This document shows positions 105 through 487 of a stretch of 5,359 nt of DNA, piece after piece. This DNA is from Escherichia coli. GTDB lineage: Bacteria; Pseudomonadota; Gammaproteobacteria; Enterobacterales; Enterobacteriaceae. Both the position numbers and the translations under genes were made by a program. The notes under the pieces were generated by a model, which saw nothing but the letters and a program-made list of their open reading frames with translations, ran no database searches and was not told where the DNA came from. How positions within the stretch are numbered: the first letter of the stretch is position 1; every line of letters begins with the position of its first letter. Location: assembly GCF_003334765.1 (NCBI RefSeq), contig NZ_QOWT01000065.1. The stretch is one strand, 5' to 3'.

Positions 105-209
105 ATCCAGTCTGCGTCCCGGAAATGGACGATGCCGTTGAAGAACTGGCGAATGGCAATGAGCCGCTTTATTATCGAGTTCGGTGACCGCCTGGACGGT
201 CACTTCTGA
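105..209 (+). pseudogene. IS256-family (IS1414-like) transposase, C-terminal fragment of 34 codons plus stop
   Basis: Plus-strand translation of 105-209 is IQSASRKWTMPLKNWRMAMSRFIIEFGDRLDGHF*, closely resembling the recalled C-terminus of E. coli IS256-family transposases (...IKDASKKWSMPIQNWRLAMSRFIIEFGDRLSDHL). No start codon; homology begins immediately at the IS3 end (104/105), so the gene is cut by the IS3 insertion. Confidence 0.6.
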
Positions 210-248
210 GACAAGGCATTTACACAGAATCTTAAACAGGCTCCTGGA

Positions 249-407
249 CTGATTTTTCTCATACCCAAGATGGTGTGTCATCTCTGCATTGAGAGCGGCT
301 TCAACGCAGAGCTTTTTCAGCAGCCGATCAAACTGACTGAGGTCTTCAGGGGTTTTGAGGTTTTTGGCCAGTTCGTTAGCCAGAGCCTGTAACTGTTTTT
401 CGTCCAT
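249..407 (-). pseudogene. IS256-family (IS1414-like) transposase, N-terminal fragment of about 53 codons, inverted relative to the C-terminal fragment
   Basis: Minus-strand ORF from ATG 407..405 begins MDEKQLQALANELAKNLKTPEDLSQFDRLLKKLCVEAALNAEMTHHLGYEKNQ, resembling the recalled IS256-family N-terminus (MDEKKLKALAAELAKGLKTEADLNQFSRMLTKLTVETALNAELTDHLGHEKN). Similarity is lost after about residue 53 (about nt 249) in all three frames; the remaining 48 residues of the 101-aa track ORF are read-through across the junction and the opposite strand of the C-terminal fragment. GAAGG Shine-Dalgarno about 8 nt upstream of the ATG. Confidence 0.6.
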
Positions 408-487
408 AAATTAGCCTTCATTTGATGCTGGATTGAATATATCAAAATCAGGCAATTACATAAATCTATGTACAGGCTCGGGCTCTC

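Follow-up and report, generated by a model that had tools for sequence, protein, structure and literature searches.

IS1414 belongs to the IS256 family of insertion sequences (McVeigh et al., 2000, as cited in PMC12585946). The hallmark of the element is the astA gene, encoding EAST1, which is embedded within the transposase gene. Decay of IS1414 by deletion has been described as common (PMC12585946). Published maps of the AAF/III, AAF/V and chimeric fimbrial clusters show ISfinder-named insertion elements, and the EAST1 gene, alongside the fimbrial genes. In C700-09, an insertion element has been placed between the AAF/III and AAF/V clusters (PMC5320562).

As a reference for IS1414 we used the full-length copy on plasmid NZ_CP196317 (locus L002, positions 1922-3236). 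This copy is 1315 bp long and has the tips GAG...CTC. The transposase (L002 1956-3164) has 402 amino acids and matches the Pfam family Transposase_mut (PF00872, Mutator type) with an E value of 5e-115; the core of the match covers aa 18-377. The EAST1 peptide MPSTQYIRRPASSYASCIWCATACASCHGRTTKPSLAT is encoded at approximately nt 787-903, in the -1 frame of the transposase gene. In RefSeq, intact copies are named 'IS256-like element IS1414 family transposase'. The length of the element, its tips and the size of its target duplication were derived from sequence, by means of a nested copy on a Salmonella Typhi plasmid (LT904873; locus L004). The nested IS1414 bears AGTTCAGT on both flanks. Hence, the element has the tips GAG...CTC, is 1315 bp long and generates an 8-bp target duplication.

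The AAF/V locus and its AAF/III counterpart

The DNA analysed here (the window, 5,359 bp) carries the AAF/V fimbrial operon, agg3D-agg3C-agg3B-agg5A, on the minus strand of a pAA plasmid from enteroaggregative E. coli. Plasmid p140_MLI109 (L001) has 7 mismatches to the window over 5359 bp, none of which fall within positions 1-104. RefSeq annotates the minus-strand genes of L001 as agg3D, agg3C, agg3B and agg5A, the aggregative adherence fimbria V operon. When window positions 1-1100 were compared with complete E. coli genomes using megablast, seven plasmids matched over the full length, with 95.7-99.6% identity. In all seven, the annotation reads agg5A, IS256 family transposase, IS3 transposase. 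The operon ends with agg5A (488-1003, minus strand; stop codon 488-490), which according to RefSeq encodes the major pilin of aggregative adherence fimbria V. The initial annotation had correctly ended this gene at position 488 and called it an adhesin; its identity can now be refined to the major pilin Agg5A.

The AAF/III plasmid 55989p (NC_011752; L005) has a backbone like that of the window. Thus, isoprenoid genes are followed by IS1414, in the same orientation and with the same right tip, and then by a pilin gene. Positions 1-1084 of L005, which include the isoprenoid genes and the DNA downstream, correspond to L001 3764-4846 with 99.2% identity, up to the IS3 end. Beyond this stretch, L005 has 143 bp and then an equally oriented IS1414 that retains astA and covers reference nt 206-1317; its right tip lies at the equivalent of window position 243. 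The IS1414 right end and agg3BCD are 98.6-99.7% identical in L005 and L001; for agg3B, agg3C and agg3D of the window and 55989p the identity is 99-100%. Homology between the AAF/V and AAF/III operons resumes at window position 932, inside the signal-peptide codons of the pilin gene. Beyond the right tip of IS1414 the two loci differ. In 55989p there is a small ORF, an intrinsic terminator and agg3A, with the small ORF lying between the terminator and the IS1414 tip, whereas the window has the inverted left end of IS1414 and agg5A. Furthermore, the IS1414 copy of 55989p keeps astA and is not interrupted by IS3. Conversely, the copy in the window has lost astA and is cut by IS3.

The window also contains an IS3-like left-end stub of 93 bp upstream of agg3D (5109-5204; compare 10-107). 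The stub is a direct repeat, across the operon, of the IS3 end (94% identity over 67 nt, with 27 of 27 positions matching at the tip). It artificially lengthens the agg3D ORF to 303 codons; the RefSeq gene start is at position 4988. Window positions 4202-5359, stub included, are present in 55989p at 99.7% identity. Because the stub is found upstream of agg3D in 55989p too, it is ancestral to the backbone. The trinucleotide ATC follows both IS3-type tips (105-107 and 5202-5204). We considered whether this was a target duplication shared by the two; since the stub is ancestral, and also present in 55989p, the coincidence is most likely due to chance. The stub sits inserted into a remnant (5208-5316, plus strand) that reads as the C-terminus of another IS3-family OrfB, ending in EIFYNRQRRHSRLGNISPAAFREKYHQMAA and a stop codon. 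The peptide is 52% identical to the end of IS3 OrfB over 25 aa. Elsewhere on the same plasmid, approximately 3.3 kb to the left of the window, L001 2689-2935 is related to the right end of IS1414, with 74% identity. This is probably a different IS256-family element and is annotated as a frameshifted hypothetical protein.

IS1414 and IS3 fragments downstream of agg5A

The only bases 3' of the operon that do not belong to an insertion sequence are the 8 bp GGGCTCTC (480-487), which separate the stop codon of agg5A from the left tip of IS1414. Reading leftwards from the spacer, the window contains the first 236 bp of IS1414 on the minus strand (244-479, with the IRL tip at 479). This segment comprises the 5' leader and left inverted repeat (408-479), the transposase ATG (405-407) and codons 1-54 (246-407). 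It abuts a segment on the plus strand, which is the last 139 bp of IS1414 (105-243; nt 1177-1315 of the element). Here, codons 369-402 (105-206) are followed by the transposase stop codon (207-209) and by the 3' non-coding end with the right inverted repeat (210-243, with the IRR tip at 243). Positions 1-104 are the left end of IS3 on the minus strand. The IRL tip of IS3 is at position 104, the orfA ATG is at position 39, and the element runs leftwards out of the window.

These assignments were made by alignment with the reference. In BLASTN searches, the left end of the element aligned with window positions 244-481 on the minus strand, at 97.1% identity over 238 bp (E 1e-113), and the right end with positions 103-243 on the plus strand, at 97.2% identity over 141 bp (E 2e-65). 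The bases at 103-104 (CA) are compatible with either IS3 or IS1414; the left limit of 105 is set by the IS3 tip. In BLASTP searches, the minus-strand piece (244-407) corresponded to transposase aa 1-54, with 52 of 54 residues identical, and the plus-strand piece (105-209) to aa 369-402 plus the stop codon, with 32 of 34 identical. Thus, the fragments share 97% DNA identity with both ends of IS1414 and have the same terminal inverted repeats. Read from the tips, the IRL and IRR in the window match at 20 of 29 positions and the first 8 bases, GAGCCTGT, are identical. Both fragments are too short for an NCBIfam search, which returned no matches when they were used alone. In RefSeq, the stretch equivalent to 243-407 carries the annotation of a partial pseudogene for an IS256-family transposase, and the C-terminal piece is without annotation.

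The initial annotation had described two oppositely oriented fragments of an IS256-family transposase gene. Both indeed map to the IS1414 reference, on opposite strands, and not colinearly to one intact gene. The C-terminal fragment had been placed on the plus strand at 105-209, precisely as found here. For the N-terminal fragment the strand and the ATG at 407 were right, but the limit is 244 rather than 249. Similarly, the interval between the fragments, estimated as 39 bp and thought to include an IS256-type terminal repeat, does contain the right inverted repeat but measures 34 bp (210-243).

We consider it very probable that positions 1-487 contain the inert debris of two copies of IS1414, a 1315-bp IS256-family element carrying astA, together with one IS3. 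Compared with IS1414, the window has only nt 1-236 and nt 1177-1315, in opposite orientations and assigned to the two copies, and lacks astA and the catalytic core. The absence of the astA region from both fragments reflects loss by deletion and is not evidence against IS1414 ancestry. The surviving codons number 88 of the 402 in the transposase gene, and the tips at 479 and 243 have the same orientation. For these reasons, the debris cannot transpose; it is the dead wreckage of IS1414 copies. That the stretch still functions, either as a mobilisable mini-element or by encoding a working protein, is the least credible of the explanations that we weighed. The IRL and IRR are both present, and positions 102-407 on the minus strand can be read as one open frame of 101 codons with an ATG. 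However, the transposase homology of this ORF ends at codon 54, the remainder is antisense to the other fragment, and RefSeq marks it as a pseudogene; the ORF is an artefact. Furthermore, almost all of the catalytic Transposase_mut core (aa 18-377) is missing and tips that face the same direction cannot bracket a transposable unit.

The two IS1414 segments meet at 243/244, where the plus-strand copy, ending exactly at its right tip, adjoins nt 236 of the minus-strand copy, which is inverted relative to it. Across the joint, the target octamer is CTGGACTG (244-251). As a single uninterrupted match, the joint is present in 7 of 5426 complete E. coli genomes and in two further PLSDB plasmids; in these two collections it is confined to AAF/V plasmids. 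Each copy in the window retains only one end; the 8-bp IS1414 duplication, AGTTCAGT, is read from L004. A breakpoint that coincides with the exact tip of the element points to strand transfer made by transposase rather than to random breakage.

In L001 the IS3 left inverted repeat and orfA start seen in the window are continuous with a full element of 1258 bp (4847-6104), annotated as 'IS3-like element IS3 family transposase' with a programmed frameshift. The sequences flanking this IS3 are TAT and ATC. There is no 3-bp target duplication, which argues for adjacent deletion or recombination between two IS3 copies, and not for simple insertion. Relative to 55989p, IS3 replaces approximately 1.1 kb, astA included. 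In pAA-ST131, the IS3 beside the debris has lost approximately 500 bp at its right end (L011 444 compared with L001 4843-5342); this is a further decay step of the same structure.

The 3' boundary of the operon

We compared the region 3' of agg5A in the window, L001, L006 (C700-09), L007 (pDEC15A-1), L009 (a draft genome), L010 (a read-assembly contig) and L011 (pAA-ST131). The TAA-GAGAGCCC-IRL junction was identical in every agg5A locus examined, and the spacer GGGCTCTC was identical in L001, L006, L007, L009, L010 and L011. The length of IS1414 kept next to agg5A varies. In C700-09 nt 1-479 are retained, and in pDEC15A-1 and L009 nt 1-128. These are independent truncations that share the junction of IRL, 8 bp and agg5A. 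In a collection of 5.8 billion proteins, Agg5A forms only four clusters, with 80-99% protein identity and all from E. coli. The loci with the IS junction span all four of them. An agg5A gene lacking the adjacent IS1414 (an 'empty site') was found neither in complete E. coli genomes and PLSDB, searched by megablast and tblastn, nor among the 5.8 billion proteins.

The minus-strand remnant had initially been described as beginning within about 80 bp of the stop codon at 488. This is true of the ATG at 407, but the intervening positions 408-479 are the leader and IRL of the IS, and the spacer is only 8 bp. The 3' boundary of the operon had also been attributed to the IS. The boundary is indeed set by IS1414 and has no terminator; with no empty site found, it can be said that the IS may have created it. 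The IS may have displaced a native terminator, or it may have arrived together with agg5A.

The supposition that the operon has no obvious native terminator agrees with our searches. There was no terminator-like site on the minus strand between 487 and 244, and the predicted fold of the RNA after agg5A contained no hairpin followed by a U-tract. A terminator-like site at 123-106 (minus strand) was rejected; it is weak (5 pairs), such sites are no commoner here than in shuffled sequence, and it straddles the border between IS1414 and IS3. As a positive control we used agg3A of 55989p, where GCGCTAAGCCCCACTTAGCGC and then TTTTT were found 12 nt after the stop codon. This site (L005 2539-2559) is in sequence a textbook bidirectional intrinsic terminator, with a GC-rich hairpin of 21 nt and a T-run on each strand. 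Unlike the AAF/III operon, the AAF/V operon appears from its sequence to have lost, or never to have had, an intrinsic terminator. Transcripts of the operon are likely to continue through the transposase stub and into orfA of IS3, on the same strand.

In the minus-strand RNA, the IS1414 left tip (GAGCCUGUA; 471-484) is predicted to pair with transposase codons 6-9 (UACAGGCUC; 378-391). The predicted pairing encloses the ribosome-binding site and the ATG, and the 141-nt fold has a z-score of -2.9. For IS10, a translation block that acts on transcripts entering from outside is known. Pairing between the IS1414 tip and codons 6-9, as modelled here, could likewise block translation of transcripts reading in from outside the element.

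Proposed formation of the joint and possible exchange of the pilin gene

The nested pair in L004 resembles the window in that one IS1414 lies inside an inverted IS1414, with its right tip abutting an internal site. L004 keeps both joints, the whole inner copy and the AGTTCAGT duplication, whereas the window keeps one joint. The insertion site is also different, at nt 236 in the window and approximately nt 720 in L004. C700-09 (NZ_LT719075), in which the AAF/III and AAF/V clusters are chimeric, has the same TAA-GAGAGCCC-IRL junction at agg5A as the window. There, a single colinear IS1414, from which nt 480-1005 are deleted, links agg5A to agg3A; there is no inverted fragment and no IS3. A target duplication, as expected of a simple insertion in C700-09, was looked for and none was found, the flanks being CCCTTCTG and GGGCTCTC. 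The IS1414 in C700-09 therefore looks like a hybrid of two copies.

We propose the following origin for the structure in the window. A first IS1414 copy, on the strand of the operon, would have had its left tip 8 bp beyond the stop codon of agg5A, where a native terminator would be expected. Of this copy, only the first 236 bp (244-479) survive. The second copy, in the opposite orientation, would correspond to the backbone IS1414 of 55989p, which is found there between the isoprenoid genes and agg3A. Strand transfer made by transposase would then have joined the right tip of the second copy to nt 236 of the first. This could have occurred by nested insertion or by replicon fusion, and homologous recombination would then have taken place in the shared agg3BCD genes. 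By either route, agg5A would come to occupy the place of agg3A in the same backbone. Finally, IS3 would have removed the second copy upstream of nt 1177, astA included, either through an adjacent deletion or because two IS3 copies recombined. We infer both the order of events and the route to the joint. The 5426 complete E. coli genomes contained no instance of the reciprocal joint of a nested insertion, with the outer copy from nt 229 beside the inner left tip, so that the nested state is a reconstruction. In every AAF/V plasmid seen, IS3 has destroyed the left boundary of the plus-strand copy, so its identity with the 55989p copy is judged from synteny. On that basis, the plus-strand fragment is best read as the backbone IS1414 copy of 55989p. 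The nested insertion, or inversion plus deletion, suggested by the initial annotation accords with a tip-to-internal joint between inverted copies, and the deletion is accounted for by IS3.

Could a single IS1414 have produced the joint? If the right end of an element attacked nt 229-236 of the same copy, nt 237-1315 would be flipped in place, and IS3 could then have deleted most of the flipped segment. The geometry is right, since such an inversion yields exactly the 1315/236 joint seen at 243/244, and L003 appears to provide a precedent. In this locus, present in 136 E. coli chromosomes, the IS1414 left tip abuts an internal site, and an inverted duplicate of the 8-bp target AGCCGCTT lies at the far end of the flipped segment. 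In the window, the end of the flipped segment where the inverted 8-bp duplication is predicted has been removed by IS3. We nevertheless regard inversion in place as improbable. The plus-strand fragment occupies the backbone position of the 55989p copy, with the same isoprenoid genes, orientation and right tip, and the 55989p copy has reference nt 206-230; these would be absent from a flipped segment that started at nt 231. The 55989p copy and the minus-strand fragment both contain nt 206-230, so that two copies are needed. Put differently, the 55989p copy (reference nt 206-1317) overlaps the minus-strand fragment by 33 bp, whereas inversion of one copy would duplicate no more than 8 bp. More improbable still is that transposase played no part, and that illegitimate recombination or a repair deletion between inverted copies placed the breakpoint at the tip by chance. 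Rearrangements, IS-mediated and otherwise, are abundant in pAA plasmids, and the internal deletion of nt 480-1005 in the C700-09 copy is not end-specific. However, the breakpoint in the window matches the element tip to the base, that tip is defined independently by the nested copy and duplication of L004, and the chance of such a coincidence is approximately 1 in 1300 per breakpoint.

The joint in the window is one of four independent IS1414 self-joints, the others being in L002, L003 and L004. In L002 (1922-3451), the left tip of a full IS1414 abuts approximately nt 1008 of a partial inverted copy. The rearrangement in L003 (2507-3318) is of the inversion type, has an 8-bp inverted duplication and is common to 136 E. 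coli chromosomes. On the Salmonella Typhi plasmid, L004 679-3316 is a perfect nested IS1414 pair with two astA genes. Repeated joints between IS1414 and inverted copies of itself may reflect self-targeting.

The mature-pilin part of agg5A (488-931) differs between the window and pAA-ST131 (L011) at 40 of 444 bases, corresponding to 91% identity. Between the same two plasmids, identity is 99-100% in the IS debris, the spacer, agg3B and agg3C. Divergence confined to the pilin suggests diversifying selection or cassette recombination.

A tentative suggestion, which we think possible but would not favour, is that IS1414 carries pilin cassettes, with agg5A as cargo adjacent to the element, or that it preferentially targets its own copies. 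The notion of IS1414 as a vehicle draws on the universal junction of agg5A and IRL, the break in homology at the signal peptide and the transposase-made joint to the backbone copy. As cargo, agg5A would have entered an AAF/III-type operon by replicon fusion into IS1414, with resolution in agg3BCD.

The debris is already known in essence; the N-terminal fragment is annotated in RefSeq and IS elements are marked on the published maps. The detail added here is the unannotated C-terminal fragment, the joint of the tip to nt 236, the role of IS3 and the contrast in terminators. The debris is ordinary plasmid scar tissue, and the naming of IS1414, of the C-terminal fragment and of the exact joint is of value mainly for annotation. 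It also explains why astA is absent from the AAF/V backbone copy. The IS1414 sequence that remains would provide homology for further shuffling of pilin cassettes between pAA plasmids. The shared IS1414 junctions may mark common descent of the AAF/V plasmids, and they offer a concrete, testable path for the swap of agg3A for agg5A in EAEC.
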